Positions 1-39,715 of a stretch of 64,000 nt of DNA are shown piece after piece. The notes below the pieces were generated by a model, which saw only the letters and a list, made by a program, of their open reading frames with translations, had not been told where the DNA came from and made no database searches. Position 1 is the first letter of the stretch. Each line of letters begins with the position of its first letter. The translations under genes were made by a program, and so were the position numbers. Origin of the DNA: Leptogorgia sarmentosa (lineage: Eukaryota); the NCBI GenBank assembly GCA_964658305.1, contig OZ210884.1, forward strand, positions 1,860,001 through 1,924,000, given 5' to 3'.

Positions 1-3000
1 TTGTTCTCAGTAGCTACGAACCAGTGAATTGGGTTCTTAATATACCATCTCACACAACTATCGCAAAAGTTATCCTGGTTAGTAAAGAAATTCCCTAAGG
101 TCAGGGGCGCAGCGAAGGGTATACATTTTGGGGAGTGCGAGATAAGTTTTTGCCGACAAAAGGTCGTGGTTAGGGCGTGTTTTGGGCGTCGACGAACCAC
201 ACCATATTTAATTTTGAAAGGATTATACCATATATAATATCATTGTTGTCAATTTCCTGGACGCTGATTGGCGAAAAAGCTTCAACAACTGTGCAGATTA
301 AACATTAATTGCACGGTTTCGGGCACGCGGTACATTCTAAAAACAAATAAATAAACGCTTATCAACGCTAAAATTCTTGTTTTTTTCGTCATTTATTGTC
401 AACTTTGGACAAAAATGTTTAGTGAACGTGTACTACAATAATATATTATTAATACGAAATTACACTTGTTCTCGAAGTATTAATGGAAAATTGCACTTGT
501 GTTTGGCAAGAAAATTGCACTTGTGTTTTTCCTATACTAATTGGTTGAGAGTGAGAACGATTTATTTTCAAAATACCCGAAACAATTTCTTAAAATACAT
601 GGTAAAATATTGAGGTAACTGCCGAAATAGACAGAAGTGATTTTCATCGTCGCCGCCGAACGGGCTCAGGAGTGGTGGTGCGGCTGTGAATACTGTACTA
701 AATTGGAGGGGTAAAAATTCCCCTGGGAATTTGGAGTGCCTAGATCATCGGAAATGGAACTTTTGGGGTCTCATATAGACGTATCTTTCGTTGATTATGA
801 CATATTCTTACCGAAATACATTTTGACGTTTTCGATCCGATAGCCAAAGTTTTCAGAAATAGCATGTTCACTTAGGCCACCTATTGATTTCACACTCAGT
901 TTGGCGACAACATGTGCCGACGGACATAGTCGATGACATTACGCCCTTGAGTAAGATAGTGCGGTCATATCTATTTTGTTTAAGAGGATATTTTTTTCTG
1001 ATACGCGTATTTTCGGTGCAATATGCCTAAAACGCGAAATCTTCTTGGCTTCTCAAAATGACATTTTTTCTATGATTATTATGTCGATGAAACAGCTTGC
1101 TGTTTGCCAAACCGTGCTTGGGGTTTCAGAAAGTTAAAGGAATATAAAAATTAAGAGCGCCAATAACCGGCCCAACCAGCTGGAAGAATTTGTTTACAAC
1201 CATTCAAGTAACATTTCAACGTGATTTAATTTCTATTAGGCATACTCTTCAAAATCTTTTTACTTTGGTTTGATATCATAAATTATGAAGCCATTTAAGT
1301 TTTATTCTGACATGTGAGAAACCTGAAAATTCAAAATATGAATTTCCACCATGATCTTGACTATTGAGCGCGAAATACGTGACATGGAGAAAATTTTCGC
1401 CTGTATATGTTTGCCGTGTCAATGATAAACGCATCTTGCCGGAGATTCTCCTATGATTTTGTAGTATTTTCATTTGTTTGTTATTATAATAATGTTTTAA
1501 CGTACCATTCCTACCACAAATGACATATATCAATTATTCTCAATATACAAATTTAAAAAAAATGTAATTCTCAACAATATGAGCATATATTCTCTACTTT
1601 ATAATAAAATGGAATGTTAAAATGCTGGAATATGTATTAGTTATAGGTTTCAGTACTTGAAAACTGAATTATTTCTTATCCTTAATTTTTCATGTTATTA
1701 TTTTTTGTAGGTGGCTTACGACATATTAGAAAGTTCGGTCAGCGGTGACGTCAGTCGAGTGAAAAACTTTGAACGAATTGGAATGACGAATTCCGAGTGG
1801 TCTTGTGGATTCGGGAGTGATTTAGGTGGATGCAATACAGTTAAGAATTTGAAGTAAGGAAATAATTAATCTCAGGGCCGCGCATCCATTTTCATGTTGG
1901 GAGGTTCAATTGAATAAAAAAATGTTGATATCACGTGTTTTGCATCGCATCAAAATCGACTGCGACATTTAATTGAAGGTGCGTCAGCATACCTGTTATT
2001 TGCTCTTTTCTGCGCCAACCTTGCGCCGTTTACGTCTTTACATGACAATCGACAAACGAATTCACAAGTTGAAATTTGATGAAGAACAGTAACGCGATGC
2101 AAAGAAATGAGTCGGACCCAGAATATATCAGGGCCGTATTAAGTTTCACAGGGCCAGTGGTATTTGGTGAAGTTTAACTAGGGGCCATGGATATGTTCAG
2201 CTAACCGTACTATTGTGCTGTTCTGGAAAAAATTAAAAGGTTATATTATTCTAGAAAGAATTAAAAGGTCACTATATGCCATATTACTTGGGGGGGGGGG
2301 GGGGGGGGGATAATACTGGTAATACTCACTTGCCGCCCCCCCCCCCCCCCCCGATCGCGCCAGCCCTGTTTAATCTAGGATGTGCTAAACAGGGAAACAG
2401 TTGATATTCATTAGTTATCACGCAGTTAAGGAATACGTTCATGACATCCAATTGCCAAGCTAAGGTAATTTCCTGTAAATATTACAGACAATTTGCTCTT
2501 ATCTCAATTTACTCTTATATTTCGCTTGTTTTTTGATAAAAATTATTCAAAGGCACCGTATTACGTAACAGTGTAAAACAAAATGATGAAGACCTGTTTT
2601 CGGGCGAGAATCAAACCATATTTGTGGTACATCTGGGCCATCTTTCAACCAGTTTCGATCGATTTGTATAAGTTATTATGGCTTGCTTTCACGCAAAAAT
2701 CACGCTTTTGTCTTCCGTCTTCAACTATTGTCGTTTTTTAATGATAAAAATGGGTAATTTCTAGAAAGCTTTTGATGTGACAACAACGAGTTCATCTTAT
2801 AATTGATTAACCCAGAAAGCCAAAAAATTAATTTGAAACATTTTAAAACAAGCTGAGACATGAGCCAAGTACTTAGATATCATTCGGTGTAAAATAAAAC
2901 TTTATTGCAATACACTGCGTGTAAGTGATGGCAGCTATTAATATTTCATGGCCGATATATTTCTCCCCATGGATCCTGACTTTTTCATTTTTCGCAATAT

Positions 3001-3222
3001 ATTATTTTTAGGTGCAGAATTGTTGAACAATTTTCGTCTGGATGATTAAATTATAAAAGGATTTATTGCGGATGATATTGTAAAATTTTCACCTTTATTG
3101 CGTTTTTTTATTTGCCAGACAAATTCATAAAAGTTTTGGAGTAGTGACTTCATTCCAAGGCACTTACAGAAAAAGCCAATGGTCTTTGGAGTTATCCGTC
3201 TTTAACGGGAGTGTAAATAATG
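1..3222 (+). CDS. Gene P module 1 (partial): exons B <1-77, C 1711-1853, D 3119-3222
   Basis: VLSSYEPVNWVLNIPSHTTIAKVIL | VAYDILESSVSGDVSRVKNFERIGMTNSEWSCGFGSDLGGCNTVKNLK | QIHKSFGVVTSFQGTYRKSQWSLELSVFNGSVNN; canonical splice sites. Confidence 0.88.
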
Positions 3223-6200
3223 GTAGGATTATTTTCCCTTACAAAAATACACATGTAAAAACCCACATGTGAAACACATGTGGTTCACATGTGATTCACA
3301 TGTATTTCAGTTGTGCCTTACTAACCAATTGATGCAACTATATTTTTGGAACATGAAGTACTTTAAAGCCGCCTGAGGTTTTTGTCATGGCAACACGAAC
3401 GGAAATTTATATTTCTGTATTTTTTTTAAAACTGTCAAAATATCAGCTTTTATCTTGGTTTTATTGGCATATTTTTTTAATTTGGAGAATCATTTGCTAT
3501 CCGTACGTTATTAGGACTAAGATAAACTTGAATTTGGTGCGAAATACTGCATTTATTTGCATGAAATAAATTACGGCCTTTGATACAAATAGTAAATTAC
3601 GCAAAACAAAAGTTCATTGCCGACAATATATTGACGGCGAACTTATCGGTCCTGTGTGTCAATTCATGGTCGTTTCTTCCACTTTCTCAGCGTTTTATAT
3701 CTTCTGAGAAGGCTTTTCAAGTCTTACAGCATAGATATTGTCTTTGTTTTCGCCTTTCCAAAAGCTTTAAGCCTTTAAAAAGCTTCTTAAAAGCTTTAAA
3801 AAGCTTCTCATGATAGTCCGCCATATTTTTGAGATCAGTGATGACCACCCTTCGACGATGACCCAAAGTGGCGGCCAAATCGAGCAACTTTGGACTCCGC
3901 TATGCTGCCCATTACCCAGGTGCAAATAGCCGTGCGAAATTATTACCCTCGCCCAGGGCTAACGCCCGGACGCGCTTCACGCCGTGGCTCGGGGATGAAA
4001 GTTTAAAATGAGCGACGAGGAGTATTTTGAGAGCGAGTTTTATTACCCAAAGGTTGACAATGAAGGATACGAAACCGTTTTTTGTCAGTTTAACTTTGAG
4101 ATCATTTTGAAAAGCACATAATTATGCCTTATAATAAAAAAACTTACGGACTTCCAATGCCCGGGCTGTGCGGGAAAGTATCAAACCTCAGTTTGATATT
4201 TTCCCGCACAGTATTGCTTTTCCTTAAGAAGACCATTTGTATAATATACGAAAAAATATTTTGCGAATTTGTTTTTCAGGTACAAGCGTAAATACATCTA
4301 TTTTTCCTACGGCTTGGCCAAAGGTTCGAAGAGTGAAATGCTCGTCCGGCTATTGCTCTGGGCAAACTAATATGAAACCTGTTTGTAAAGACGGATACTG
4401 CTACTGCAATGGAAAGGATTACGATTACGATACTTGTTTGCGTGAGTTCTGACGTGGTTGGTTTTAAACACTGAGCTAAAGAATTACTGGAGAGAGTGCA
4501 CGCCCCCAAAAGTTGAAGCCAAAATAATGGCGTGGATTCATGCTTGCCACGTCAGATCCACGCCACTTATTCCTAATTTTCATTGGAGCAACACTGACCA
4601 GAACTAACTTTGAGCCCACTAAAGATTTGTTTTCGCGAAAATATTTTGGTTTTTGCATAATATTTTTCGGTTTTTCTTCCTTTTTTGACATTCTGATATC
4701 ATTTGCTGTCTTCAAGACGACTCAAGAATTGGCGACATCTATTCTAGTTAGTTAAAAATTAAGCGGCACAGATATTCAGAGCTCGAAAATCTCATTTGAA
4801 ACTTGAAAGGTAGTCTCTTTAGAAAATATTTTATTCAATTTTTTTCATAAAAAGGGATTACATTTACTTTTCTGGCTGAAAAAACTCTGCTTTTTTATAG
4901 AACGTTTTTATATCAGCCGTGCAAAAATTCGGCCTATAAGACCGCTGTTGGTCAGTGGAAATTATAAGAGAAACAACAACCAGTGGCGTCAGCAACGGTA
5001 AAATCCGCCATGTTTTTGGCTTCACCCCTTTGTATGGAAATAGTCGAGTGCACTCTCTCCAGTCTTTCTTTAGCTCAGTGGTTTTAAAAAAGTGAATTAA
5101 TTGAAATGTTAGGGCGGGGGGGGGGCGTTTACATTTCTATAGAACCTTTGGTTTTTATGTTATGTCAACAAGAATAAATGATAATGCCCCTCTTTCCTTT
5201 ACCAGCAAGTATTGTGTCTATTACATAACTGTATTAACTTCAAGTAATGAGGTTACCACCTATCTCTAATATCTATTCTATACATAGGATGTCATGATTT
5301 TGCAATATTTCCATCAAGGTCGTAGAAATTATAACAATATCTGTCCGAAAATTCCACCAATTCGTGAAGAAAACAAGCCAAAAAAAATAATATTGAAAAA
5401 GTGTTAATTTTGAAAAGAATTTAACATGAGAATAACACGAAGCAAGACAAGACATGAACATGGAAAGAACGTGACAAGAAAATCACATGAACATCTCATG
5501 AACGTATAGGAAATTCGTGAAAAGATCGAAAATTTCCTATAATATTAAGAAGCTAGTACGGGTTGTTTCCCGGACTTGGCAATTTTATCTATTGCATCTG
5601 CCAACATAATTATACCGAGATAATTAAGTTACAGTTTGTTCGACAAAATTGCACTCATTCGTAAAGTGTTCGTATGTTAACCAAGGCAAACATTTGCATG
5701 TCATCTCGATTAAGACGTTTCAGAAGAGTACGATTAATAGTTTTTCTCTTTTTTGCGTTGCGTAAAATTCTTTTCAGAATACGTTTTTCTTGGATATTAA
5801 ATGATTATTCAACATCCGCTTTCTCGGTCATTTGAACGCCTCGTGACACCGTGACACTTGAATAAACAACTTTTCCTTCCTCTAGCTGATGCTTATGGAT
5901 GTAAAATTGTTGCAAATTCTGATACCACCTTCACTTGTACTCCTGAAAACAGTTCATCAAAGTACGAGGTGCATGTACTGGCTGTGTACGAGGTTATCAA
6001 CAGACGTCCTCCAACAGCTGGTGATTCCAACGTCAATATCATCAGTGGTGGAAAATCCAACAGACCCATTATACTTGTGCTTGTTAGCTACGAACCTGTA
6101 AACTGGGTTCTTAATATTCCACCTGACATTATCATCGACAAAGTTATCCTGGTTAGTACAAAACACGTTAAAGAAGTATCATAGTTTATATGCGGTCATA

Positions 6201-9200
6201 GCTATCTCAAATTTCTAAAAATGTTGACGAACAAATGGCAATAAATTACAGCTTCTGCTGTACCTTCTGCTATCATCTTGTGTTTAATGACTGCCAGCCT
6301 TTCTCAATCACACTACCCCATTAGGGTATTTATTGCATCGTTTTTGGTTTGTAGAATTATTTACTTAGGTCGAATTTTTTTACCATTGTTGGAAACAGAT
6401 TGTAATTTGTAATGTATTTCAAAACAGATCTAGACTGTCATTACAATTTAACACTAAATTTCGAAATTTCACGTAGAAAACGCGCATGAAGAAAACCTAT
6501 TCTTGGCGGAAATGGAACTTTTGGGGTCTCATATAGACGTATATTTTGTTGATTGTCACATATTCTTACCGAAATACATTTTGACGTTTTCGATCCCACA
6601 GCCAAAGTTTTCACAAATAACATGTTCTCTCAAGTCACCCATTGAATTCACACTTATTTTGGCGACAAAAGGTTTCATGTGTCGACGAACATAGTCGATG
6701 ACATCACGCCCTTGAGTATGGTAGGAGGTTGATGTCTATTTTGTTTAAGAAAATTTTTTTTCTAACACGCGTATTTCCGATGCAATATATATGCTGAAAA
6801 TAAACCTGCAATCTTTTTGGCCGGCCAAAATGAAATTTTTCTATTACTCTTTTCTCGATTAAACAGTTTGCTATTTGCAAAACCGTGCTTGGGGAAAGTA
6901 AAAGGCATGAGAAAATAAAATAAAAATTAGGAGCGTCAATGTTCGTATAACCGGCGCAACCAGCAGGAAGACTTTGTTTATAACCATTGAAATGATATTT
7001 CAGACGTAATTTTCTATTTGGCGTACTCTCGAAAATATTTTTACTTTGGTATGGTATCATAAATTATGAACCTATCTAAGTTGGCTTGCCAACTGAGAAT
7101 TCAAAATGTGAGTTTCGATCATCTTGAGTATTGAGCGCGAGATACGTAACATGTAGGAAATCTTCGTCTTAGCTCATAACTTTGCCGTTTCAAGCATAAA
7201 CGCATCTTGCCGTAGATACTCCTATGATTTTGAAGTGTTTTCATTCTTTTGTTATTATAATAATGTTTTAATTTATCATTCCAAGCACAAATGATATAAA
7301 AAATTATTTGTTATTCTCAATATTATTCATGTTATTTCTGTAGGTGGCTTTCTATATATTAGAAAGTTCCGTCAGCGGTGACGTGAGTCAAGTGAAAAAT
7401 ATTGAACGGATTGGAAGGACGAACTCCGAGTGGTCTTGTGGATACGGGAGTGATATAGGTGGATGCAATACAGTTAGGAATTTGAAGTAAGTAAATAACA
7501 GGGGCGCTTGAACTGTGTTTACCAAGTTATTTTGTAAACGAATAATAACTGTTAGTGCATAGGCTCTATACTTTAAAAAAGAATAGCCCTGTAACATCCC
7601 ATTCATTTGACAGACAAATACACAGACTGTTTGGTGTCGTGACGTCGTTTAGAGGCACTTACAGAACAAGTCGATGGTCACTGGAGTTGTCGCCTTTTAA
7701 CGGGACTGTAAACAACGGTACGTTTTTGCATTAATGGATTCAAATTCTCCCACTTTACCGGAACTAACAAGGAGTAGAAAGTCTTCCTTTTCAAAACTGC
7801 TGCAACTTTCTCGAAGTCATTTGAAAATTTTGAAACGAGAACATAGAGAGGAAACGCATTCCCTCCCACCACCGGCCTCCGCCCCACCGTTCGCACCATG
7901 GAAAGTTACAAATTAGTTTAGAAGTATCTAAAGTTGTAACGTAAATAAATTTTGAGTTAAGAATGTGCTATTACACATATTGGGCCTCGAAAGGATAGTT
8001 TTCCTGGAGAAGAATTGGCATCAACACATTATATATATATCTTGTAAAGTTTATTTTTAGGTTCCAACCCAATCACAGAAATCATTCCCACCTCTCGGCC
8101 AACAATTCGGAGACAGAAATGCGGGGGCATTGACAGCAATTGCCCTGAACAATCTGAAGACATGAAAGCTTTCTGTAAAGATGGATACTGCTACTGTAAT
8201 GGGACGGACTATGATTACGACACTTGCCTGCGTAAGTTCTTTAATTGCTTGATTTTCATTGCAAGTTGTTGTTATTACACATGTTTACCATCCTATCCAA
8301 CAGGTACGATCTGTGAGATCAGAGGTTGTCAAAATCGTGCATTTTGTTGCCTGGGGTCGGTTGTATAAAACTCTTAACTATCCGTTTCGTAGTTAAACGG
8401 TAGTTAACTTTGAAATACCCGTTTCTGATTGGTCAATTTTCCCATTTAACTATAGTTAACTTTAACTAGTACGTTTTAATACAACCGGCCCCTGATCTTT
8501 AACCATTTCCGCTAAATCTTACCACGCTTTTGCATTGCTATAATATGACACGAACCAAGGGGAAATAATTATCAAAAGATCTTGAATAGAACTTTAAGAG
8601 AAAATACATCTCAACAACATGAAAACTAGCCGAGGAAAACATCACATTACACTGCAAACATGATGAGTGCATAACAGGAATATGGCGAAGCAAATTATAA
8701 GAACAAACTTCCAAAATTATGTAACTATCGCTTTCTCTGTAACATACCCGGCTGCTGATGCGTAAATATAAACTTTTCTGTTACCCCAGCTAGCTGATGG
8801 ATATGGATGTAAAATTTTTGCAAATTCCGATACCACCTATATTATTTTATTCGACATGCGCTTAATTTCTCGCTCATTTGATCGGCTCCCGACACCGTGA
8901 CACATGACTAAACAACTTTTCCTTACCCTAGCTGATGCATATGGATGTAAAATTGTTTCAAATTCCGATACCACGTACACTTGTACTCCTGATAACAGTT
9001 CACCAAAGTACGAGATTCATGTACTGGCTGTGTACGAGGTCACCAGCAGCCGTTATTCAACAGCAGCAACAGCTAAGGCCATGGTCGATATCATCAATCG
9101 TGGAAAATCCAACAGACCAATTATACTTGTGCTCGTTAGCTATGAACCAGTAAACTGGGTTCTAAATATTCCTTCAGGCGTAACGATCGGCAAAGTTATC

Positions 9201-12200
9201 TTGGTTAGTACAAAATAATTTAAAGATGTTTGACAGTTTGTACGCGGTCAAATCTGCGGGTTTTGAAAGCTAACAATAAATTGCATTAAATTACAAATCG
9301 GACAAATTGTAATAAATTACAGGGGCCCAAAAATAGGTTCTCTCACACTGGGTTTCATCCACCCTTTTAGCTGGCGAAATAATTGCTTAGGCCAGATCTA
9401 ATTTCACCACAGTTTGAAAGAAATTATAATTTGTACTGTACTACAAAAAGATACGAGACTCTCGTTACATTTTAACACAAAATTTGGAAATGTCACAAAG
9501 ATAACGCGCATGAAAAAAATCTTATTTTTGCGATCTTTTACGCAGGAAAATCTAGCAATTAAATTGCAATGCTTATACGCGGAGAGGCTGAGTGTTAAAC
9601 AATTTTCAAAAAGCCAAACAATTTTAATACCTTTATTCTTTTGAAAAAAAAAGATGGATATCCCATAGCCTGAGTACGGCTAAAAAATTTGAATTGGAAG
9701 TCCGAATTACTGAAGCTTGTAACAATCCAGTTTTCGGACGTTCGTGTCAGCTTGAACAAAATTTCTGAAATTAATTACTTTTTTTAAATTGCTCCATATT
9801 TTCACGTGATTAAAAGCCAAGCACTAAAGTAGCTCACATCAACGAACTTGCTAGAATAAAGGATACATTTTAACACTAATTGACTGCCGTAAATACCGAA
9901 GTGTCGTGTTGGCGTTCGCAACGAACACAATGTCCTTAATTTTTTCCGCCCTCATAATTTCAGATATTTTATTTTTCTAGTTTAATTTTTTTAATTATAA
10001 TTCCTGTGCACATCTAGTTAAAAATGTTACGTTAATATTAAATACTTGTATAATTTTCAGTATTTCATGTTATCTTGTGTAGGTGTCTCATTATATAGTG
10101 GAAAGTGCAGTTAGTGGTGATGTAAATAGGGTGAGAAGTATTGAACGAATTAGAACGAAGATTTCGAATTCAGAGTGGGAAACGGGATACGGAAGTGTTT
10201 CTGGCGATGGGGGGACAGTAAAGACTCTCAAGTAAGTAAACAGTAAATTTTTATCAATTTTATCGTTAAATTTGCAAATCTGTAACATCCCATTCATTTG
10301 ACAGACAAATACACAAACTGTATGGAGTCGTGACGTCGTTTAGAGGCACTTACAGAACAAATCGATGGTCACTGGAGTTGTCGCCTTTTAATGGGACTGT
10401 AAACAACGGTACGTTTTTTGCATTAATGGTTCAAATTTTCCCACTTGTGCGGGAAATAACTGCCTAAACCGCGGCTAACAAGGAATGCAAAGTCTTGATT
10501 TTCAAAACTGCTGCAAGTTTCCCGAAGTCATTTGAAAATTTCGAAACAAAAACGCAGAGAGGAAACACATTCCACCCCACCACCCGCCTCCGCCCCACCG
10601 TTCGCTCCATGGAAAGTTACAAATTAGTTTAGAAGTATTATTGTAAGTATTATTAAATAAATGTAATTATTTTGTAACGTAAATAATTTTTGTTTTAAGA
10701 ATGTGTTGTTACACAAAATGTTATTCGAAAGCAAAGTTGCCCTGGAGAACGATTGGTATCAGCACATTTACCTTGTAAATTTTATTTTTAGGTTCGAGCC
10801 CAATCACAGAAATCATTCCCACCGCTTCGCCAACAATTCGGAGACAGAAATGTAGGGGCATTGAAAGCAATTGCCCTGGCCAATTGGGAGACATGAAAGC
10901 TTTCTGTAAAGATGGATACTGCTACTGTAATGGCACGGGCTATAATTACGACACTTGCTTGCGTAAGTTATTTAATTGTTTGATTTTAATTGCAAGTTGT
11001 TGTTATTACACATGTTGACCATCCTATCCAACAGGTACGATCTGTGAGATCAGAACTTGTCAAAATCGTGCATGTTCTTGCCTGATCTTCAAGCATTTCC
11101 GATAAATCTTGCCACGCTTTTGCCATTGCTATAATATGACAAGAACAAAGGGGAAATAATTATCAAAAGATCTTGTTTGAATTGAACTTTACACGAAAAT
11201 GCATCTCAACAACATGAAAACAAGCCGAGGAAAACATCACAGTACACTGCAAGCTTGATGAGTGCATAACAGGAATATGGCGAAGCAAATTATAAGAACA
11301 AACTTCCATGATGATGTAACTATGGCTTTCTCTGTAACATACCCGGCTGCTGTTGCGTAAATTTAAACTTTTTTGTTACCCTAGCTAGCTGATGCATATG
11401 GATGTAAAACCTTTGCAAATTCTGATACTACCTATACTTATTCGACATCCGTTTTCTAGCTCACTTGATCGGCCCCCTACACCGTGACACTTGAATAAAC
11501 AACTTTTCCTTCCTCTAGCTGAAGCGTATGGATGTAAAATTGTTTCAAATTCCGATACAACGTACAGTTGTACTCCTGATAACAGTTCAGCAAAGTACGA
11601 GATTCACGTACTGGCTGTGTACGAGGCATCTGGTACTGCTAATGTCAATATGAACAGCCGTGGAGAATCCAACAGACCCATTATACTTGTGCTTGTTAGC
11701 TACGAACCCGTAAACTGGGTTCTTAATATTCCACCGGACATTATCATCAACACAGTTATCCTGGTTAGTACAAAACACGTTAAAGAAGTATCACAGTTTC
11801 TATGCGGTCATAGCTATCTCAAATTTCTAAAAATGTTGACGAACAAATGGCAATAAATTACTGCAGCGACCTTCTGCTATCATCTTGTGTTTAATGATTG
11901 CCAGCGAAAAAAATAGCCTTTCTCAATCGCACTACGCCATTAGGGTATTTATTGCATCGTTTTTGGTTTGTAGAATTATTTACTTAGGTCGAATTTTTTT
12001 TTTACCAATGTTGGAAACAGATTGTAATTAGTAATGTATTTCATAACAGAACTAGACTTCATGTCATTACAATTTAACACTAAATTTCGAAATTTCACGT
12101 GGAAAACGCGCATAGAAAAAACCTATTCTTGGCGGAAATGGAACTTTTGGGGTCTCATATGGACGTATCTTTCGTTGAATGTGAAATTGATTACCGAAAT

Positions 12201-25353: not shown

Positions 25354-25359
25354 AATAAA
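25354..25359 (+). terminator. Candidate polyadenylation signal of gene P
   Basis: AATAAA about 225 nt after the stop, followed by T/GT-rich sequence. Confidence 0.5.
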
Positions 25360-26572: not shown

Positions 26573-26583
26573 TTTATTTTATT
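26573..26583 (-). terminator. Candidate polyadenylation signal of gene M
   Basis: Overlapping AATAAAATAAA on the minus strand about 130 nt after the stop. Confidence 0.45.
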
Positions 26584-26711
26584 CGAATTTGAGCAATTTT
26601 CACTGCCTGAAATATAATGTTAATTACGTTATTAGATGACAACTATATGCCGATCTCATTTCATTTTTTTAAGAAAAATGTAGCTATGATTGTACCAGTT
26701 ATCTCTAACTA

Positions 26712-27215: not shown

Positions 27216-30200
27216 CTAATAACAATAAAACAATGGCGACATTATACACATATATAGCTAACTCATATAATGAACTCAAGAGACGTTCGTGCACTTTATG
27301 TACACGTGATGTGTAATATATATTGCTTTTTGAATGGTTTGACATTATACGACACACAATTGTATTTCTGATACTTTAACATTTATTAGATTAAATAACT
27401 TGTGTAACGTCGGCGTCTTCACGTTTTGCGTCGAAAAAGTCAAATGTCGCGTCGGCCATTTTGGCTTTTTTGTTTTTAGATCGCATGTATATTTGAGTGC
27501 AATACGGCGAATGCAATACGGCTGGGTATCTGCACTCTGTTTTGCCCTTATATGGTAAAATGACATCATTGTCGTATAATAATTTGAGTTACAACATTAA
27601 CTTATTTAAAATTTGGATTATTGTGTTTCTTCGAATTTGAATGCATTCCGCCCCCAAATAGGGCAAGCAGTTCCGCTTAACGTTAAAATATAGGGAAAAA
27701 CCACCATTCTGACACCCGCTCAAGTCCATCCCGTTTTGCATAGACATCCGTATGCCGCTGTCATCCAACTCTATGTAATCTGGAATGATAACCTTATATA
27801 AACATGCCCATACCAGCCAATAATGGCGGCTTCAAAACTCCAGCGATTGGCGGTGTTTACACACTTAATTCTCATTTTTTACCTAACAAATGGTGGTCCC
27901 GCAAGTTTCAAAGTACATTATAAAAAGCGTTGATGCTTTTTATTTTAAAGGATCGTTTTCTTTTAAAAGGATCGATTATAAAAAGCGTTGATGCTTTTTC
28001 TTTGTAAAGGATCGTAAAATAGACTCGAAGCCTTTCTAGAAAGCCTACAACTACCAAAAAACTAAGGATTTTCGCGCGGTTTTATGCTCGATTTTTCTTT
28101 TGTTTGCTTTATTTCTACCGTAAACAATTTTTTCAAGTTTTATGTATATGATTCGAAAGTATTGTTGTCCTACCATTCTCTGAGATGAAATTGAAACCAT
28201 TCGAGGAAAGAAAAGTGATTAAATTTATCCATTTTCAAACTGTATTTTGGGGGGAATTTTGTTAAAGAGACTGGGGCGACCTACAAAAAACCCCTCATTT
28301 GTGGCTTGAAAGATGGCGGCCAAATTATCATTCCAGATTATTTAGAGTTTAATGGACGCTAAACTCCTTCCACCATTTTGACATCGGTCATAACCACAAT
28401 ATTAATAAGCTACACAGAAATACGTTGAGACATTTTTTATAACACTCATAATAAATTCATAATACTGAAGAGAAGTATTACTTCAAATATCGTTAGACTT
28501 ATATGCTTATAGTTGTATATAATCTCGATCAGACTGTCTTTTATGTTGGGTGATTTGGCGACAAGAACCCCAATAATAAAATATTCAAGTTCCTTTTAGC
28601 GGAAAAAATTGCGGCACTAATTATAATATAAATTAGATCTTCTACTTTGCAAGTATAAATTAAGCTAAAATCCACTAAATTTACTCTGCTGGGTTAGTAG
28701 AAATAGTTTTGGCGTTTACCTATGGAAACCGTTATAAACTTTAGAGAAACTTACAAACATCTCCAGACAACTTCAACGACCATTGGTTTGTCCTGTAAGT
28801 GCCTCTAAATGACGTCACGACACCGTATCGTTTATGAATTTGTCTGAAAAAAAAGATATATGTATCATAATATTTTCCAATTTCGGTATTAAATTTTGAA
28901 ATAATCAACTCATCACGGCAAATTCTTCATTATTCTGCGATGCAAATTTGTGATTTTATTAAGTGCAAATCTGCATTTCCTGATAACCAAACAATTGAGG
29001 ATGCGTGCAGTCCCACGGTTTGGTGATGTTATGTATGCAAATTTATATCAGAGAGATTAGCCAAGCGATGTTTTCGTCTACAATGACGCCAAATGGAAGT
29101 GAATTGAACCGTTATAGCCAATGAAGGGCACGAATTACCCCCTATTGGCATGCGTTATGCCAAAAACATAGCTTGATGCAAATTTTCCATTACAGCCGAT
29201 TTGCCCGCACTGGCAGAGCGAAAATGTTGAATCTTGTGAAAAATTATGATTAATCGCGCCGGCACGCCAGGAAAGTTGAATGTAGTTCAACTTCTATACT
29301 TCTATACTCCGCGCGCGCAAAAGGAGAGAGAAAACGCTCAGATTCGACACCTATAGCAAAATGAAAGTTGAAACATGTTCGCTCCACCCGGGCAGGAAAA
29401 GCTCTCTGTTACCGTGCTCATTGAATGCGAATTGCGGTCAATTTCTAAAGAATTGAATAATAATAATCCTATCTAATTTGCAAAGTATGACCAGATTGTC
29501 GGCCTAGCTTCGCTACTGCCTTTAGGTTTATTTCCGTATTGTTGGATGAGCTTGGCATTATAGTGCCAAGGATGTATTGTTTCTATCTGAAAAGTAATTA
29601 CCAAAAACTAAGTAATTCGCGTGAAGAACATTAGTATTGCGGAACTGCTTGCTTTGAATAGAAAAATTAAATAATTACAAACAGTTAGCTATTTCGTTTC
29701 AGTTATCTTAGCATTTGCAATCCAAGTAAGGGCGTAGTCAGGTGTTGGAGGGTTAGGAAAACATTACTTTTCAGTTTCGGCGTCATGCAGTTTTTCTAGG
29801 AAAATCTGGTCCTGCGCTGCCTCTCCCGAATCCTAAAATTGTATCATGAACCAATTTAGGTTTCAGGGAAAAAATTCATCTGCTTTACTCACTTTAGCAG
29901 CTCGACTGTTCGACCACCATCCCAATCACTTCCGTATCCGGCATCCCAATCGGAACTTCGCGTTCCTTTTCGCTGAACAATTTTCACTTGATGCACGTCA
30001 CCACTGACAGAACTTTCATCAATGTAATAGGAAACCTGGAAAGGAAAAGACAACATACGCGACTCTAATCAGACTTGGTCTGGAAGAAACTTGGACTTGC
30101 ACCGTTATTTTATACGGCGCTTCAACACTACGCCGTAGACTGGTGGCGCTAGCCAGAACGACTATGGGGGGAGGGCAGATCCATATATTCGTAATCCGCA

Positions 30201-33200
30201 TTATCGTTTCGGCTAGGCCACTGCCAAGAATGTTTGAGCAAGTTGATAGCAGAAGCACTTCAGTCACCTGTCTCTTATTAATTAAATCTTATTAATTACC
30301 TTATGAACATTATTAATTAAATTCACAAGTGGTGAATCGAATGCATACAAAATCCGGCATATTAATTTTTTTTACTCATATAATTGCACCAACGCGAATG
30401 CCAATGAAGTAGGTTGGGTTTTCTTCTTAACCAATGATTTCGAAGCTTTTATTATAATTAATAATATGAATAATATCATATATATAACTGAAGGAGTTTT
30501 GACAAAATATACTGATCTATTCTATCGGCTAACATGTCATAATAAGAGGGTCCTGAAGTGGTATAATGGAAATTGGGATATTGTTATTATCGGCCGATGA
30601 AATGGAATTTCATCCACTGGGATATGGTTAGATGAGCAAAAAAGACACCAGAATATAGCAGTGGGATGAATATTTGACTTGGACAGCCACTGAGACGATT
30701 TAAGTAGGGAAATAAGAAATTGAGGGAGGGAAATGGGAATCGGAAACTTCCACTAAGGCTTAGTTGAGACGTCGAACTTTTCATGTGCCGAATCTAATGT
30801 TAAAAACCTAAGTTCTTTGTTTGGGATCGTTTGCATTAGGTTCGGCACATGAAACGATTGACGTCTGGACTGGCCCTAAGGATCCTCTGGTAGCTGGGGA
30901 AACAACATACGTCTTTGTGCGGTATTTTGTACTAACCAGAATAGCTTCATTGATGCTAATATCAGATGGTATATTAAGGATCCAGTTTACAGGTTCGTGG
31001 CTAACGAGCACAAGTACAATAGGTCTTTTGGATCTTCGATGACTAATGATATTCACGCTGGCATTACCGGCTGTCGGAGGACGTCTGTGGAATACCTCGT
31101 ACATTGACAATACGTGAACCTCAAACTGTGGTGAACTGTTATCGGGATTGCAAGTGTAGATTGCATCAAAATTTGAAACAATTTTACATCCATATGCATC
31201 AGCTAGGGTAAGAAAAATGTCTTGATTCAAGATTGAACAGGTAATAAAGAGACATTAAAAAGCGAGCGAGGAATATTGATTTACAGAATGGACCAATTGC
31301 AAAATAGGCAATTTTCATCAAAAGTTCGAAATGCTACAATTCATAACAATAGCGTTAAAGACCATCCCAAAAGTAGTAAATTCCAAAGTTTGGGTGTAAA
31401 ATGTTGTAAAATACGTAAAATATAACCGTGCAAAGCAGGGAAAATTTGTATTACGTGCGTGAATTGCTAAATGAATTAGTTACTTCATTTCGCACGTAAT
31501 ACAAATGTGTACAAATTTGCCAATTTCGCAGGGCTATATGATCCATATTTTACAACATTTCGCAACCACACTTTGCCATTTTACTAATTTTGGGATGCTC
31601 CTTCACGCTATTGTTATGAATTGTACTATTTCGAACTTTTTAAAAATTTTGTCTATAATGCAATTGGTCCATTACACAATGAAAAAGCTTTTTCAGCAGT
31701 AAGTAGCTAATACTAATTGAAGCAAATCGTAATTTGACACGTTTGAGACGTCGTTGGTTAGAGAACGACTTCATGATCAGAGGTGACTACTTTGAAATTT
31801 AAAAATAAAATAATTATTATTCTAATTTTAGCGACAAGAATAAATTAAAATCTATTACAACACTGTCCGAAAAGGCGTCTCGGAAATGACAACAGCAAAA
31901 TTTAGCAAATATTATGACAAGACCATCTAAGACGTGGTGTTTAAATGACGTGCCACGTTCATAGAAGGGCATATAACGTCCTTTTTTACGCTATTTCAGG
32001 ACATCGTTATCGTCACGGCGTGTTCGCTAGATTTCGCTAATATTGAATATTTTGTGGCGATATGTCGTAGAATACGTAAAATTTAGTGGCTCAAAGTTGC
32101 CCATTTTATATTTTACAACTTGCGGAAATTGGGAACTAATGTACGACTATACAAATTTATAACTATACATATATTTATAACTATACATTTGCATTACTGT
32201 GTTAGTATTGCAGCAAGTGATTTAGTTGCCTCACACAGGTTATATTTTACAAAACACCTCATGCAAGCAAACCTTGCAGTTCAGTTAATATTAAAACAGG
32301 CACTGACCAAATTTTGAGAATTTGCAGTGTCTAGATTATCACAAATGCCATGTTCAATGTCTCGTGAGAACTTTGTTAGTTATGCTATGTTTTACTCTGA
32401 ATACATGTTATGACCTTTTTTGAACCACCGTCGCAAGACAACAACATTACATCATCTGGCACGATGTACAGAATCAACCCTTTTGCAATACCATGTCAAA
32501 TTGCTCAATCTGCCTAATCACAATAATTTCTAAGTAAAAAGAACCAACCGACTAAGCAACTTACGTAAACAAGTATCGTAATCGTAGTCTGTGCCATTAC
32601 AGTAGCAGTCCCCGTCTTTACAGAAAGCTTTCATGTCTTCATGTTGGCCAGAACAAAATCTGCTCAAGCATTTCTCGTTGGGGAGGATAGGTGTTGTTCC
32701 GTTGTTACCTTCAAATATAATAAGCCATGATAATGTTTTCATGCTGAAGCCGTCTCATATATATAAATATGCAGTCAAACAGAAATATGTAGACAGTCAG
32801 CCGAAAGCTTGTGGTTTAGAATAGCTTGCGATCCGAAAACGTTTCAATTAAGCTTTATTATGAATACTAGTCGCGGAATCTAGAGTTTGTTTTCAAGGAA
32901 CTTAGCAGGTTTATTTGGAAGCAATTGTTCCCGGGGGGGGGGCTAATTGACCTACGACCTACGCCATAAAGTTCTCACCAATGCTAATGTCTACATAAGA
33001 GTGCAACAGACGTGACAAAACGTATTATAACATATCTGACACATGTTATAGGGTCAAGATTTTTCTGCAAACTCATAACAACTTGTAACATGGCGACTGG
33101 CTCCACACAATTCATGCAAGATAATTAGATTGCAATACAATTTTATCAATCTTATAGCTTCAAGAAGCTTAGTTTGGAAATGATAGTAATTGTCACCTCT

Positions 33201-36200
33201 TTTTTACTAGCAACCTTCAAAAACCGAAGCCTCAAAAAACTTGTTGAAACGCTGCGAGATTTTTTTCTGGACGAAAATAAGTGATTCCCTCTCCTTACCG
33301 AAAAAAACTGACGAATTCTGCTACACTGCCAAAAAACCTACCTTTATCTACGGTCCCGTTAAATGGTGATAACTCCAACGACCATCGGTTTGTTCTGTAA
33401 GCGCCACTGAATGACGTCACAACGCCAAACAATTTGTGGATTTGTCTTGCAAAGACGAAAAATGTTGAAATGTATAAATTTGACAATAAAAGTTCTTTTT
33501 TTGCCTTCAGCTTAATCTTGGATTGTGGCAAAAACGTTCTAGTTTAACTGATTACTTACTTTAGGGTCTTTACTGTATTCCCTCCACCGGAATCCGTTCC
33601 ATATCCAGTAGACCACTCAGAATTTCTCGTTCCAATTAGTTCAATATTTTTCACTTGACTTCCGCCGCCACTAACGGAACTTTGTGCTATATAATAAGAT
33701 ACCTAAAAAGAACAGCAGGTGAACGACTGAAAAATTATAATTTTACACAGGAATTTATGTTTATATGTTAATGCATGCAACAAATCATTATCCCACAAAA
33801 ATTATGCCATCTAAAAGGGAGGTTACAGTCCCTAATGTAAACAAACGGTTTGTTTACATTTTTAGCTGCTATATTTGTAAAATTTGACCGAACTAACTGG
33901 ATATCGGACACTTTTCGGGTTTGTTATACTCCTAAAAGAATATAAACTAGCATTTCAATTAAAAAATGTTTTAAAAATGCAAAATTTGGACAATGTGGTA
34001 CACATTTGTTATGAGCAGAACCGGTGCGCAGAAGCGACTATAACCTGTCTTTAAGAATTCTATGGGATAAAATTGGCTTTAGTGGCAACTGGCAATAATT
34101 ACTAACTGCAATTAAACGAGTTCAAATTTTATTTAGCCTAAAACAACAACTCGAGAATAGACTGGGCGTTTGCTAAAACAGCAATAAAAAACTCCTGACT
34201 ATCTGTGAGACATGCTTAAATTCCCGCGAAGGCAATTTAAATTTCCGTGTCTCGATGGCTTGAACCAAAAACGGGTTTCGACCAATTAGAGCACACGATA
34301 TACACATGTTATAATTATTTTATAATTGTTTTCACCCCTATGTTATACTAACCAGAATAACTTTACTGATGGTAACATCAGGTGGAATATTAAGAATCCA
34401 GTTTACAGGTTCGGAGTTAATGAGCACAAGTACAATGGCTCTGTTGGATTTTTCCCGACTGATGATATTTACTGTAAGTTTCCCAGCTCTTGGTGGGCGT
34501 CTGTTGATAACCTCGTACACAGCTAGTACGTGAATCTCATACTTTGGTGAACTGTTATCAGGAGTACAAGTGTACGTGGTATCGAAATTTGAAACAATTT
34601 TACATCCATAAGCATCAGCTAGGAAAAGAAAGAAAATTGTTCCAGTGATAAATGCTCGTAATCAGCCCAGCAAAAATGCTTTTCGTAGAGGATTCGATCC
34701 TGTCAAGATCTTTTTATGCTCTTCTAATATTCTTGTAACATGTGTCAAACTTGTTGTAATGGGTGTTTAACAAAGTCTGAGGATCAGTGTTATACTGCCT
34801 GTAACAACTTGACAAAAACTTGCTGAATCTTGGAAAGTTTTTGAGACATTTCCTCTCGGAAGTATGTCAAATCGTTAAAATCTCTCAAGTGACCTAACCG
34901 ACTCATTCTTTTACAACGAAGGCCTAACCTGGGACCTTAAGTCGCCGTAACTTTGGGCGACTTTGGGCGACTTTGGGCGACTTTGGGCGACTTAAGGCGA
35001 TTTTAGGGAATAATCGCCAAAATACATGACGATTTAAAGCGACTTAAAACAGTTTAAGGCGACTTAAGACGACTTAAGGTCCCAGGTTGGGCTTCAAGGA
35101 CAATACACAGATTAATTACAATTACTTTTAGTTAAATTTAGCAGGTGAACAACTTACGCAAACAAGTTTTGTAATTGTAGTCTTTGCCATTACAGTTGCA
35201 GTACCCATCTTTACAAAAAGCTTTCATGTCTCCATGTTGGCCAGAACAATAGCTGCCCAAGCACTTCATCCTTCGTACTGTTGCGGTAACAGTGGGCAGG
35301 ATAGCTTTTGTTGTGTTGGTATCTGGAAATATATGAATAATACAAAATAATGTTTAATTTAAATAATAATACAAAACGTTTTTAATGAAATGTGATAGTA
35401 TATCATATCCGATCCGTTTCAAACGGCATTATTTAAAGTCTTATTTACTTCGAAACCCCTCTTTGCAAAATGATGAAAACTTTGAACAAGCAGCGTTAAA
35501 AAACCCTGAAACTTGCCTAATTTTCACATCTGCGGACGATAAAAACGATTGTTGTTCATTTCGGGAAAAGCTGACGAAAAGCTGCTACATTACGATAAAA
35601 CTTACCGTTTTTCTCGGTCCCATTAAAAGGCAACAACTCCAGTGACCATTGGTTTGTCCTGTAAGCGCCCCTAAATGACGTCACTACGCCAAACCATTTG
35701 TGGATTTGTCTGGCGGTTAAGAATAATGTTGCAAATTTAGTAAATATGATAATAAACAATTATTGGATGAGGCTGAGCATGATATCAAGAATTATTCAGA
35801 CCGAGGTCAATGTTATCTGCCGAAGCGAAGCAGAGGCGGATAACATTGACCGAGGTCTGAATAATTCTTGATATCATGCGAAAGCCGAATGCAATAATTG
35901 TTTTATTATACATTTAAAAGAGAGTTCACTTTCATTCAGCGAAGCAAATCTGCTACAGGCCATTGTTTGTTTGTTTGTTTTTTCGCGCGCTTTTAGCTTC
36001 AAGCTTTTGACAGCGCTGGGGCTTGGGCACGAGAGAGTCCAGTAATTTTTTTTTTGGATGCAAGTTCGATCCAAAAAAATAATTATTGGACGCTGATGAC
36101 GTCATCGGCGGAAAATACGTAATAAGTACCGAATACTGAGAATTAGCCGGTGCTTTCTGACCAATCAGGAACGAGAATAAATTTTAAATGTATAATAATA

Positions 36201-39200
36201 AAAGTTATTGTGGTAATTTTTTGCCGTCAGCTAAATCTTCGATTGTGGCAAAAACGTTCCAGTTCAACTGTTCACTTACTTCAGAGTCTTTACTGTATTC
36301 CCTCCACCCGAGTCCGTTCCATATCCGGTAGACCACTCAGAATTTATCGTTCCAATACGTTCAATATTTTTCACTCGACTTACGATACCATTAACAGAGC
36401 TTTCTAGTATATAATAAGATACCTAAGCAACATAAGAAGAACAATAAGAATCAAAATCATTTAACGAGGAAATTTGAATCTATAAGTATTAGGAACTATA
36501 AATTATTGGATGTCAATAGGGACATAGCGACTGGGGAATGTGAGGGGTTTAACTCCACTCCAACTTAAACCAATACATTATATGAAATAAATATAGACAG
36601 AACCAAGACCAAAATTGAGGTAAATCACCGCAAAAGAAGGTCTCCACAAGCAGAACTGAAGACCCAAAAATGCCATTTTCGAAGATCTAGAGACCTCAAA
36701 TTCTAAAATAATTTTCAATCGCTGTTGTCCCTCATAGTCTTCAACTGCACCCGACTGCTTGCGATAATTAAATCACTAATCCCCCTTCCCCACCCACGCA
36801 CACGAAAAAAGCTTCGCTACGTCCTTGCAATCATTATCTTGCAAAAATATTGTAATCTAAAAATTTTTCTTCGATGAAACGGGCTGTAGTAGCAAATGGC
36901 TTTTGGAGGCAGTGTTAGAATTATATAATATGCATTTATTTATGCAGGATAATGCATGATCACGTGATCACTCGACATGTGCTTTTAGAGTTTCTTGTTC
37001 GTTACGCTACTTGTACGTTGTACTACTATTAACTAGAAATACATACATGCAGCAACCCCTCGCTCGTCTTACTAACGTACCAAGACTACAGTCTACATTA
37101 AACTCAATGCACCTATATTCTAACAACATGAAGTACTCAGACATTGTCGTCATAACAACAACACGGCAATTCATATTTTTCCGTATATTTTTTTATAAAT
37201 GAAAAATAATGTAAAAAATATCATTTTTTTAACCTGGTTTTTATAGAATGTTTTTTAATTCGCAGAATATATGTCGCACTAATGTCATTAAACCTAAATT
37301 TGATGTAACATATTCGCATAAGACGTTTTCAAATGTTTTTATTTTTAGGACATTATATTTTTGTTTCATACAAATTTCGTCTTTGAAATAAAACTATTTT
37401 CATAGGTAGCCCAACGCACGCATGATGTAACATTCTGTAGTATAATATGACATCTTATATGTCATATTATACTACGGAATGTTACGTCATGCGTGCGTTG
37501 GGCTACTATGCTATTTTAAGCCAATATTCGCTCGTATTCTTTCCATCTAAAATTCGTTAGTATCTTGAAATACTAAAAAGGCCATCTTACATTTGCAAAA
37601 CGTAAAATTTCTTAAATTAAACTGTAAACAGATTGAATGCGGCTAAACCAGCCATTCATATAAGTACGCGAGAATTTTATATGCAAACAAAACATACGCT
37701 TGTCTTGTATTTCAATCCATTGTCGCTTCTCGTGGATTTAAAATCTCTTTCCAGCATTAATGTCTTCTCAGGAGTCTTTTATAGTCTTGCAACAATAGTC
37801 TTCGTTATTGTTTTCCCCTTTTTAAAGCCTTAAATAGTGTTCGCTCTTCATGATAGTCCATAGGCAGCCCAGTGATCTGGGGTTTTATTATGTTAACTAA
37901 GGTTGAATAGGGCTATTTCATCATCCTTAGTTGTTTATATGCGTGCGCCGACAATACGGTCACTCGCGTATGTAATTAATAGTTATAATAATTGACAATA
38001 ATAATTATAATAATAATTATAACTATTAATTACAATAATTGACAATAATAATTATAATAATAATTATAACTATTAATTACATACGCGAGTGACCGTATTG
38101 TCGGCGCACGCATATAAACAACTAAGGATGATGAAATAGCCATATTCAACCTTAGTTAACATAATAAAACCCCAGATCATTGGGCTGCCTATGGATAGTC
38201 CGCCATATTTTTGAGATCAGTTATGACCACCCACCCTACCTTGACCCAAAATGGCGGCGAACTGACTTTCAACTCCGCTCGTGCGGAATTATTACCCTCG
38301 CCCCGGGCTAACGCCCGGACGGCGCTTCGCGCCGTGGCTCGGGGATAAGGTTCCTTTTCTCAACTTAATATTAAAATATTCAATTATACAAGTTTGGCAG
38401 GGTGATTTGATAATAGGCAGAACTGCGCTATTTAATTCCTTTGTCTCTGTATGGCATGGAGCACTGTTCTAGCATTTTGTTAACAAAAACGTTATATATA
38501 TATACATACATATACTAAAAATACATGATTATGACTTCTAGGCAGGGAGACTGTCATACACCTTTATAGTATTTTTTCACTAACCAGAATAACTTTGCCG
38601 ATGGTAACGCCAGATGGAATATTAAGAATCCAGTTTACAGGTCGGTAGCTAACAAGCACAAGTACAATGGGTCTGTTGGATTTTTTCCGACTGATGATAT
38701 TTACTGTAAGTTTTCCAGCTGTTGGAGGACTACCATAACCTCGATTGATAACCTCGTTCACAGCCAGTACGTGGAGCTCGTACTTTGGTGAACTGTTATC
38801 AGGAGTACAAGTGTATGTGGCATCAGAATTTGCAACAATTTTACATCCATAAGCATCAGCTAGGGTAACAAACAGGGTTTAATTCAAGTGGAGGCGAAAG
38901 TCGAATGCTGCCTTAATACCCAAGAAAATGGGATTTCTGAAAACAATTTTACGTAACCCGAAATGAGCGTCATTTATACCACTACGGCAAAAGTAACGTT
39001 TTCGAACAAAGGTAAACGGAACCCCGTTTTGCTATATATTTTTGCGCCGTTTTTAGACCGATTCGGAGTAGTGTAAACGTATAGTCCTGAAGGCAACATG
39101 CATCAAAATTGACGCAACATATTTTTTAATTATTTGGTAGCATAAAACATTCATCGATTTGCTTTTTTTTGTATTTATTGACTCATGTTTGATGTGGAAA

Positions 39201-39715
39201 TTATCACAATGACGTTGTATATAAAGAAACCGCAAAATCCCAAGAGCTTATTGTTTGTTTCTCGACAATCTAAAATTACTGAAGTCTAGTGAAGTAACTT
39301 GCAGTGCGGCGTTAATTTGAATATCGAGCCGTGGTCAATATCAGCAAAACAAACCAAGTTAAAAAAGTTTGAGTAAATGCTTTATTCGGTCATTCGTAAG
39401 CTCGCTCTTTTAGCAGCCGTAACAAAGATGAGGCGTCACATTTCGATGCATATTAAGTCTGAAGAAAGACATACTGTATGAATATCGACCAATTAATCTG
39501 ACCTATGGAATGCAGGAACACAACTTACGCAAACACGTATCATAATTATAGTCTTTCCCGTTACAGTAGCAGTAACCACTTTTGCAAACAGGCTTCATGT
39601 CACCATAACCAGGACAGTAGTTACGTTGACATCTTGTTTTTTGGCAAGAAACAAGTGCTGGGAAATATTCCAGGGCAATAAAAATCACGACACAGTTGAA
39701 GAAACTTTTTTCCAT
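26712..39715 (-). CDS. Gene M (complete CDS, 15 coding exons, 786 aa): type I membrane protein; signal peptide + 3 x [EGF/EB-like cap + betaglycan/endoglin orphan-like domain] + stalk + TM + short Tyr-motif tail
   Basis: Hand-spliced on the minus strand, all GT-AG, 2361 nt open frame. Exons: 39715-39529, 38859-38585, 36422-36280, 35709-35606, 35322-35158, 34618-34353, 33702-33560, 33445-33342, 32708-32565, 31202-30937, 30035-29893, 28843-28755, 27215-27030, 26956-26921, 26821-26712 (TAA). Confidence 0.86.
28755..32708 (-). CDS. Gene M module 3 exons A 32708-32565, B 31202-30937, C 30035-29893, D 28843-28755
   Basis: Same cassette; D is shortened (QIHKRYGVVTSFRGTYRTNQWSLKLSGDV) with a GTAAGT donor, phase 1. 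Confidence 0.86.
30757..30876. mobile_element. MITE, PIF/Harbinger (Tourist)-like
   Basis: Imperfect TIRs (..gacgtc..ttcatgtgccgaa / ttcggcacatgaa..gacgtc..); TAA on both flanks. Confidence 0.7.
31287..31673. mobile_element. TIR element (aatggaccaattgca termini); relative near 53898-54127
   Basis: Long imperfect inverted arms; a second diverged copy is in the window. Confidence 0.65.
33342..35322 (-). CDS. Gene M module 2 exons A 35322-35158, B 34618-34353, C 33702-33560, D 33445-33342
   Basis: Same cassette, open frame. Confidence 0.88.
34918..35095. mobile_element. MITE with internal 10-bp tandem repeat (gactttgggc)n
   Basis: TIR aacctgggaccttaagtcg / cgacttaaggtcccaggtt; 4 internal decamer copies. 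Confidence 0.7.
35606..38859 (-). CDS. Gene M module 1 exons B 38859-38585, C 36422-36280, D 35709-35606
   Basis: Homologous to gene P exons with identical phases. Confidence 0.88.
35749..36198 (-). mobile_element. Non-autonomous hairpin element, probably Crypton-derived
   Basis: Absent from the paralogous intron 33446-33559; ataataa at both ends; about 150-nt hairpin; remnant ORF MACSRFASLNESEL at 35963. Confidence 0.65.
37401..37510. mobile_element. 110-bp fold-back MITE with 7-bp TSD, P-superfamily-like
   Basis: cataggtagcccaacgcacg...cgtgcgttgggctactatg; TSD ctatttt (37394-37400, 37511-37517). Confidence 0.8.
37859..38193. mobile_element. 335-bp fold-back MITE with 7-bp TSD, P-superfamily-like
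   Basis: Near-perfect inverted arms of about 125 bp starting cataggcagccc; TSD gatagtc (37852-37858, 38194-38200); empty site at 3812-3818. Confidence 0.88.
39529..39715 (-). CDS. Gene M first coding exon: signal peptide + first Cys-rich cap
   Basis: MEKSFFNCVVIFIALEYFPALVSC-QKTRCQRNYCPGYGDMKPVCKSGYCYCNGKDYNYDTCL. An acceptor (ctgcag) lies 16 nt upstream of the ATG, implying a 5'UTR exon; candidate donor CG|GTGAGT at 39888. Confidence 0.85.

Follow-up and report, generated by a model that had tools for sequence, protein, structure and literature searches.

In a 64,000-nucleotide stretch of the Leptogorgia sarmentosa genome (assembly GCA_964658305.1, contig OZ210884.1, positions 1,860,001 to 1,924,000; hereafter the window, numbered from its first letter), two genes, here called M and P, face each other tail-to-tail and are built from the same four-exon module. 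This module is predicted to consist of a six-Cys cap followed by one endoglin/betaglycan orphan (OR) domain in OR1 order. M encodes a membrane protein with three modules, and P encodes a chain of at least seven that is likely secreted and, by analogy with matrilins, likely forms a disulfide-linked oligomer.

Organization of the locus

The window has a G+C content of about 36%, and dispersed direct and inverted repeats span positions 1–39,800. These repeats are the four-exon unit itself, with exon phases 1-1, 1-0, 0-2, and 2-1 for exons A to D; no module exon was found in the window beyond 39,800. M lies on the minus strand and P on the plus strand, their stops (26712 and 25128, respectively) are 1,584 bp apart, and all of their exons are bounded by AG/GT. 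An earlier sequence-only reading had described a module shared by two convergent genes with stops about 1.6 kb apart, with M running from signal peptide through three modules, a stalk, and a transmembrane (TM) segment to a Tyr-bearing tail, and P comprising at least seven modules, no TM segment in the window, and a Cys-Cys plus coiled-coil end. The spliced frames, 774 amino acids (aa) from 14 exons for M and 1,547 aa for P, bear this out, and the two-gene observation is real and confirmed. The same reading was mistaken in stating that nothing of this is visible among the open reading frames (ORFs), as the large B exons can be seen there as ORFs running from stop to stop. The features of M, all on the minus strand, are as follows.

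26712..39715, gene M, type I membrane protein, three modules, 774 aa, 14 exons
39715-39529, 38859-38585, 36422-36280, 35709-35606, signal peptide and module 1
35322-35158, 34618-34353, 33702-33560, 33445-33342, module 2
32708-32565, 31202-30937, 30035-29893, 28843-28755, module 3 (junctions in contigs)
27723..28401, dead EGF exon in two pieces, 28401-28354 and 27758-27723 (weak tblastn matches, E 0.017 and 0.62)
27030..27215, stalk and TM exon (in contigs; 51% identity to the Paramuricea TM exon)
26712..26821, end of TM segment, cytoplasmic tail with Tyr motifs, stop (in contigs)

The stalk places about 55 aa between module 3 and the TM segment, and the tail of about 30 aa carries three Tyr residues. 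The terminal piece at 27215-26712, previously drawn as a single exon, is present in transcript contigs but consists of two exons separated by a 208-nt intron. Its acceptor at 27215 scores weakest of the 40 scored, yet it is the one used in the contigs; an alternative acceptor at 27122, which corresponds to the Paramuricea exon start, was rejected, as it leads to an immediate stop, scores -10, and is not the site that the contigs use. The dead EGF exon is skipped in the transcript, and a Paramuricea isoform has an intact EGF at this place. Upstream of M, a second copy of its TM and tail exons lies at 47559-47497 and 46875-46769 (minus strand), with intact splice sites and 83% identity to the Paramuricea TM over 18 aa; a search of the window found no ectodomain exons for this copy (47559-46769). 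An inverted repeat with 169-nt arms, 89% complementary and separated by a 1-nt spacer, occupies 37857-38195 in an intron of M and is high-copy by read depth.

The features of P, all on the plus strand, are listed below, with module exons in the order A, B, C, D.

1..25128, gene P, 5'-incomplete, at least seven modules, Cys-Cys and heptad end (1,547-aa open frame; 3' junctions in contigs)
1-77, 1711-1853, 3119-3222, module 1, partial
4280-4441, 5886-6151, 7344-7486, 7614-7717, module 2 (phases 1-1, 1-0, 0-2, 2-1)
8061-8231, 8932-9203, 10083-10231, 10305-10408, module 3
10792-10962, 11519-11763, 12581-12723, 12797-12900, module 4 (shortened loop at the betaglycan binding-loop position)
13246-13416, 14114-14385, 15261-15409, 15483-15586, module 5, near copy of module 3
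15969-16139, 16695-16939, 17674-17801, 17932-18038, module 6
20479-20733, 21853-22160, 23327-23469, 24319-24454, module 7 and Thr-rich linker, with the Cys-Cys on the last exon
25030..25128, terminal coding exon with heptad repeat and stop (spliced contigs)

The 28 exons of P join into one frame whose sole stop is terminal, while the other two frames contain 67 and 117 stops. The window holds six complete modules and the last part of a seventh, the most N-terminal one; the N-terminus lies outside it, and secretion depends on that 5' end. Neither a TM-like stretch nor a glycosylphosphatidylinositol (GPI) tail was found in the in-window frame, where the top 19-residue hydropathy (1.89) falls in a beta-strand region. 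After the Cys-Cys, one heptad register has hydrophobic residues at 8 of 10 a/d positions; the six alternative registers have 1 to 4. Module 5 matches module 3 at 98.3% with introns included, and their exons B, C, and D show no nucleotide difference, so the count of seven modules may vary or be inflated, whether through very recent duplication or through assembly. Short repeats of the beginning of exon B were also noted at 8790, 11385, 13972, and 16561 (plus strand), each some 130-140 bp before the genuine exon B; their acceptors score strongly (10.9-12.6), and they read into stops.

Transcripts and selection

Five sequencing runs cover the stretch, none of them recorded as RNA. The contigs of X1 and X2 are long and run through introns, whereas those of X4 and X5, two samples of one study, break at exon borders; because these contigs skip GT-AG introns, we infer that X4 and X5 are RNA. 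The comparison of spliced-contig junctions covered 24250-30100, that is, the 3' parts of both genes. Junctions 24454/25030 (P) and 27030/26821 (M) are joined in both samples, and 28755/27215 and 29893/28843 (M) in X4 only. The exons that the sequence-only reading had singled out for an RNA check, 25030-25128 and the pieces of 27215-26712, are therefore present in spliced contigs, and the 3' ends of both genes are expressed. At module 7, contigs break at the borders of exon B7, and loose ends in X4 and X5 match the end of exon C7. The transcript contigs of P extend into the 3' untranslated region to about 25351, with an AATAAA at 25354. In X5, the exon spliced to the stalk exon at 27215-27217 resembles the D exon of M module 2 (two mismatches over 28 letters on visual comparison), and two variants of the TM exon of M occur in both X4 and X5; these observations may represent module skipping, alleles, or a further paralog.

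Between modules (exons B to D), the ratio of nonsynonymous to synonymous substitution rates (dN/dS) is below 1 in all 35 measurable pairs of 36, with a median of 0.32; the remaining pair, P3 and P5, has identical sequences. These data bear on the reading that the pair is an artefact of annotation or assembly, in which P would be a repeat array that has decayed or been over-assembled. Such a reading could draw on the near-identity of modules 3 and 5, on the partial exon duplicates with good acceptors, and on the dead EGF exon, but it is highly improbable given the continuous open frames, the spliced contigs in two samples, a dN/dS of about 0.3, and the similar architectures in Pocillopora, Oculina, and Paramuricea.

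Identity and fold of the module

A profile of 47 homologs, searched against 177,635 PDB sequences, matched four at E<0.001, all of them TGFBR3 (betaglycan), with a best E of 2e-8 and matches in two sequence repeats. Against the same database, a single-sequence phmmer search with the Montipora single-module homolog P0032 gave chance rows only, and a profile of the bacterial core (see below) gave one chance row. An AlphaFold2 model of P0032, which is 63% identical to window exon B2, reached a pLDDT of 83.5 and a pTM of 0.75. In Foldseek, the top 10 rows for this model were all betaglycan or endoglin orphan domains (best E 4.6e-8), and the next row had an E of 0.34. Alignment with VIA-align of model residues 70-239 to residues 4-333 of betaglycan chain 9fdy_C gave a Z of 18.0 and a root-mean-square deviation (rmsd) of 2.5 Å over 154 residues, compared with a Z of up to 3.5 for unrelated rows. 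Against a 156-residue chain with the first repeat core only, the VIA-align match begins at model residue 90. The P0032 model and the family profile match the OR fold, which is beta-helix-like with one alpha helix and a two-Cys arm, and we read the module as one uninterrupted, arm-first OR unit on this predicted structure. The fold searches bore on the core and barely covered the six-Cys cap, which belongs to no assigned family. The earlier suggestion of a likeness to betaglycan is thus upheld, with homology to its orphan domain indicated by profile, Foldseek, and VIA-align alike.

How successive modules are arranged was examined in a model of the two-module Paramuricea homolog P0076 (pTM 0.55), in which the modules are well predicted and the linker (267-283) is disordered (pLDDT <50). 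Relative to the whole orphan region, the model is colinear over 270 residues with an rmsd of 16.2 Å, and this homolog prediction contains no intertwined subdomains; the modules are accordingly predicted to be independent beads on Thr/Pro-rich linkers. The main and second binding loops of betaglycan align to the module's two variable, indel-prone loops, with no conservation of the residues themselves; P modules 4 and 6 have a shorter version of the loop that corresponds to the binding loop of betaglycan.

Distribution of the module

With exon B2 as the query, 75 of 130 candidates matched. The closest named relatives are from Paramuricea clavata (77-81% identity), followed by Porites, Pocillopora, Oculina, Montipora, Desmophyllum, and amphioxus; coral homologs are 57-81% identical over exon B. 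A query with the last module exon of P matched none of four candidates. Many homologs carry a precomputed match to Pfam PF26060, which we take to be the TGFBR3 N-terminal domain family, and all of the following are unnamed or misnamed in databases.

XP_058949665.1, homolog with PF26060 match
KAL9963162.1, homolog with PF26060 match
KAL9963169.1, homolog with PF26060 match
CAB4002788.1, homolog with PF26060 match
CAB4024302.1, homolog with PF26060 match
XP_035673048.1, homolog with PF26060 match

Direct Pfam scans of window exons and homologs returned no PF26060; a scan of nine window exons found no Pfam family above the cut-off, and an NCBIfam scan of nine homologs found nothing meaningful. 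With automatic Pfam annotation already present on homologs, the databases contain the link to this domain in latent form.

Searching 1.84 billion representatives with a profile produced 893 matches, 150 of them listed; 20 were looked up, and those named came from a sponge, molluscs, hemichordates, echinoderms, and amphioxus. The module is mobile across animals, from sponges to amphioxus. Pfam annotation of 60 proteins placed it beside trypsin, TARSH_C, WAP, sushi, LDLR, TSP1, MAM, VWD, reeler, antistasin, SRCR, and EGF domains, and in amphioxus it occurs with C-type lectin and kringle domains. Copy number and anchor type differ by lineage, and a module tree (36 rows, with one amphioxus row left out) gave species-level clusters that did not separate TM from coiled-coil forms by orthology. 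In six proteins (P0143, P0149, P0151, P0152, P0167, and P0170, one of them from Patella), the module apparently follows an internal hydrophobic segment, as in type II membrane proteins. A scan of metagenomes yielded two loci from 449 stretches, each 3-5 kb and of no use for synteny; one of them (L002) has the same B, C, D exon pattern.

Myxobacteria, cyanobacteria, Nocardia, and proteobacteria encode a cap-less version of the core (92 of 108 stretches were bacterial), frequently in tandem, and its profile matches the animal profile at 99.1% in hhalign. No NCBIfam or Pfam family names those scanned of these single or tandem OR-like core proteins (L003-L081). Searches of the ESM Atlas returned sub-threshold leads only (0.75, myxobacterial secreted proteins), with no named match.

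In Oculina, a coiled-coil form and a TM form with a long, Tyr-rich tail have locus tags seven apart and lie on a contig of equal length, and one RefSeq model runs from the beginning of one form into the TM tail of the other. This fused model implies same-strand gene order, so that linkage recurs there but probably not tail-to-tail.

Proposed function

We favour, at about an even chance, multivalent recognition or adhesion directed at a putative ligand outside the TGF-beta family. M, as a single-pass protein, would bind this ligand at the cell surface and then signal or be internalized through its Tyr tail, while P would oligomerize in the extracellular space through its Cys-Cys and heptads, as matrilins do, and would cross-link ligands of that kind or soak them up through avidity. 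The OR modules may recognize cell-surface, matrix, or microbial ligands, with the indel-prone loops tuning specificity from module to module. This reading is preferred because the core is present in bacteria and because its domain contexts in animals are mosaic; we know of no TGF-beta ligands in bacteria.

Several points weigh against this reading. Both structure models come from homologs (Montipora and Paramuricea) and not from the spliced proteins of the window, and because indels in loops are frequent whatever the domain, their coincidence with the betaglycan binding loops is weak evidence. Selection on the modules is overall purifying, not diversifying, by dN/dS. Among 11 tails examined, all three Cys-plus-coil homologs (from Pocillopora, Oculina, and one unnamed source) end in a GPI-like hydrophobic stretch, unlike P. 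In addition, the sole demonstrated function of the OR fold, in the literature drawn on here, is binding of TGF-beta-family ligands (PMC5464963, PMC11865472).

In a less probable alternative, M would serve a cnidarian TGF-beta-family ligand of BMP or activin type as a co-receptor without ZP, and P would be the matching soluble trap or shuttle of high avidity, so that two genes would stand for what membrane and shed forms are in betaglycan. Betaglycan OD1 can be superposed on the module model, and the main and second binding loops of betaglycan, the OD1 loop and a second loop in the arm region with which its two-domain arc is described as binding TGF-beta, map to the two variable loops of the module (PMC11865472). 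Endoglin OR1 is reported to bind BMP9 at about 300 nM and, upon dimerization, at about 10 nM, a gain of about 30-fold (PMC5464963), from which it follows that module chains and oligomers would gain avidity; membrane and soluble betaglycan, moreover, are described as acting in opposite directions (PMC10381214). However, betaglycan is stated to require OD1 and OD2 locked as an arc (PMC11865472), whereas independence is predicted for two successive coral modules, and the unconserved binding-loop residues, the shortened loop in P modules 4 and 6, and the bacterial occurrence of the core all argue against a co-receptor and trap. The interfaces of betaglycan and endoglin also differ, and ligand binding thus need not be ancestral.

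The C-terminus of P raises another option. In matrilins, cysteines ahead of a heptad coil accompany the formation of dimers to tetramers (PMC2427018); this precedent makes oligomerization of P likely, with the trimer only one of the dimer-to-tetramer options. P could then cross-link mesoglea or the organic matrix of the skeleton in the manner of a matrilin, with M tethering cells to it via module-module contact. Such a structural pair would fit the cysteines before the heptads, the 24 N-glycosylation sequons and Thr-rich linkers of P, and the close linkage of two genes with a common module, but the Tyr-bearing tails found in M and in the TM form of Oculina point to signalling or trafficking, and we consider it quite unlikely.

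Origin of the orphan domain

The orphan domain owes its name to a lack of known relatives, and its origin was inferred from vertebrate structures alone. Saito et al. (2017) describe an OR2 that interrupts OR1 behind its first two strands, the disulfides being C30-C207 and C53-C182, and propose that an ancestral OR2 was duplicated and then circularly permuted (PMC5464963). In the coral module, the two arm cysteines come before the core of the same module, as they do in the second sequence repeat of betaglycan. The module likely reveals the single ancestral unit behind the betaglycan/endoglin orphan domain. It suggests an origin of the orphan region of vertebrates from such a unit, duplicated in tandem and with arms exchanged between the copies, which would give the vertebrate pattern directly. 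A wider scenario, rather unlikely as a whole, would make the module the one remaining ancestor of that region and have a bacterial extracellular beta-helix core gain a Cys cap, undergo exon shuffling in early animals, and already bind BMP-type ligands; corals would then have built a ZP-free co-receptor and a separate multivalent trap, and OD1 and OD2 would have arisen by tandem duplication with swapped N-terminal arms, not by circular permutation of OR2.

The stand-alone OR version in corals, other invertebrates, and bacteria makes the origin of the orphan domain testable. The answer would show either that the co-receptor and trap logic for BMP predates the fusion to ZP, or that TGF-beta co-receptors recruited a general recognition domain. 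For coral biology, the gain is an expressed, lineage-variable family of surface and likely secreted proteins that is now labelled uncharacterised or misnamed.

Other features of the window

Three further kinds of element were noted outside the two genes.

43420-43954 (plus) and 60626-60952 (minus), GIY-YIG endonuclease-like remnants (weak Pfam match, E 0.015, for the first), which we take to be the ends of Penelope-like retroelements
48382-48491, pentanucleotide tandem array of 22 copies
About 59535-59717 (plus), likely first exon of a secreted protein, with a hydrophobic leader and then an Asn/Arg-rich motif; no Pfam match, and presumably resembling DD3-3-like proteins

Comparison with known systems

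The sequence-only reading did not recognize the architecture. The domain itself proves to be known, as homologs carry precomputed PF26060 matches, but the ZP-free tandem architecture is absent from the literature searched, which mostly did not extend to subscription papers. A coral preprint mentions a "Tgfbr3" marker once, without detail (10.64898/2026.07.18.739195), and a review gives echinoderms one TGFBR3 gene (PMC10381214). The interpretation offered with the original observation is supported in part: the architecture, the 3'-end expression, and the betaglycan hunch hold.

Betaglycan (TGFBR3; PDB 9fdy, 9b9f, 6mzn) shares with the coral proteins the order of motifs (both cysteines of the N-terminal arm among them), the fold (Z 18), and the existence of membrane and soluble forms; the single TM segment with a short tail is shared by M only, as P has neither in the window. 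The coral module differs in being one uninterrupted OR unit with a six-Cys cap, and chains of three to at least seven predicted independent beads replace two intertwined subdomains (OD2 within OD1). The soluble coral form comes from a separate gene with a coiled coil, not from a shed ectodomain, and the binding-loop residues differ. No ZP match was found on the M stalk exon, and the only room for a ZP module, between module 3 and the TM segment, is about 55 aa, across a junction present in a spliced contig. Endoglin (CD105; PDB 5i04, 5hzw) resembles the module in fold (Z 11.5-11.8) and shares the logic of oligomerization for avidity, but the coral module is in OR1 order, arm first, as opposed to the ancestral OR2 of Saito et al., and likewise lacks ZP and an intertwined pair.

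Matrilins are comparable in architecture only: a modular chain with terminal cysteines followed by a heptad coiled coil, a sequence pattern seen in P, which has no vWA domain and whose whole in-window frame consists of OR modules, linkers, and tail. The nearest counterparts are the uncharacterised coral and invertebrate PF26060 proteins, which have the same module and, in Oculina, both TM and coiled-coil forms, although the stony-coral coiled-coil forms differ from P in their GPI-like end. Because it has neither ZP nor, on the homolog prediction, an intertwined pair, we place the M and P pair outside the betaglycan/endoglin family, as proteins that would work like an avidity-based OR-domain binder.

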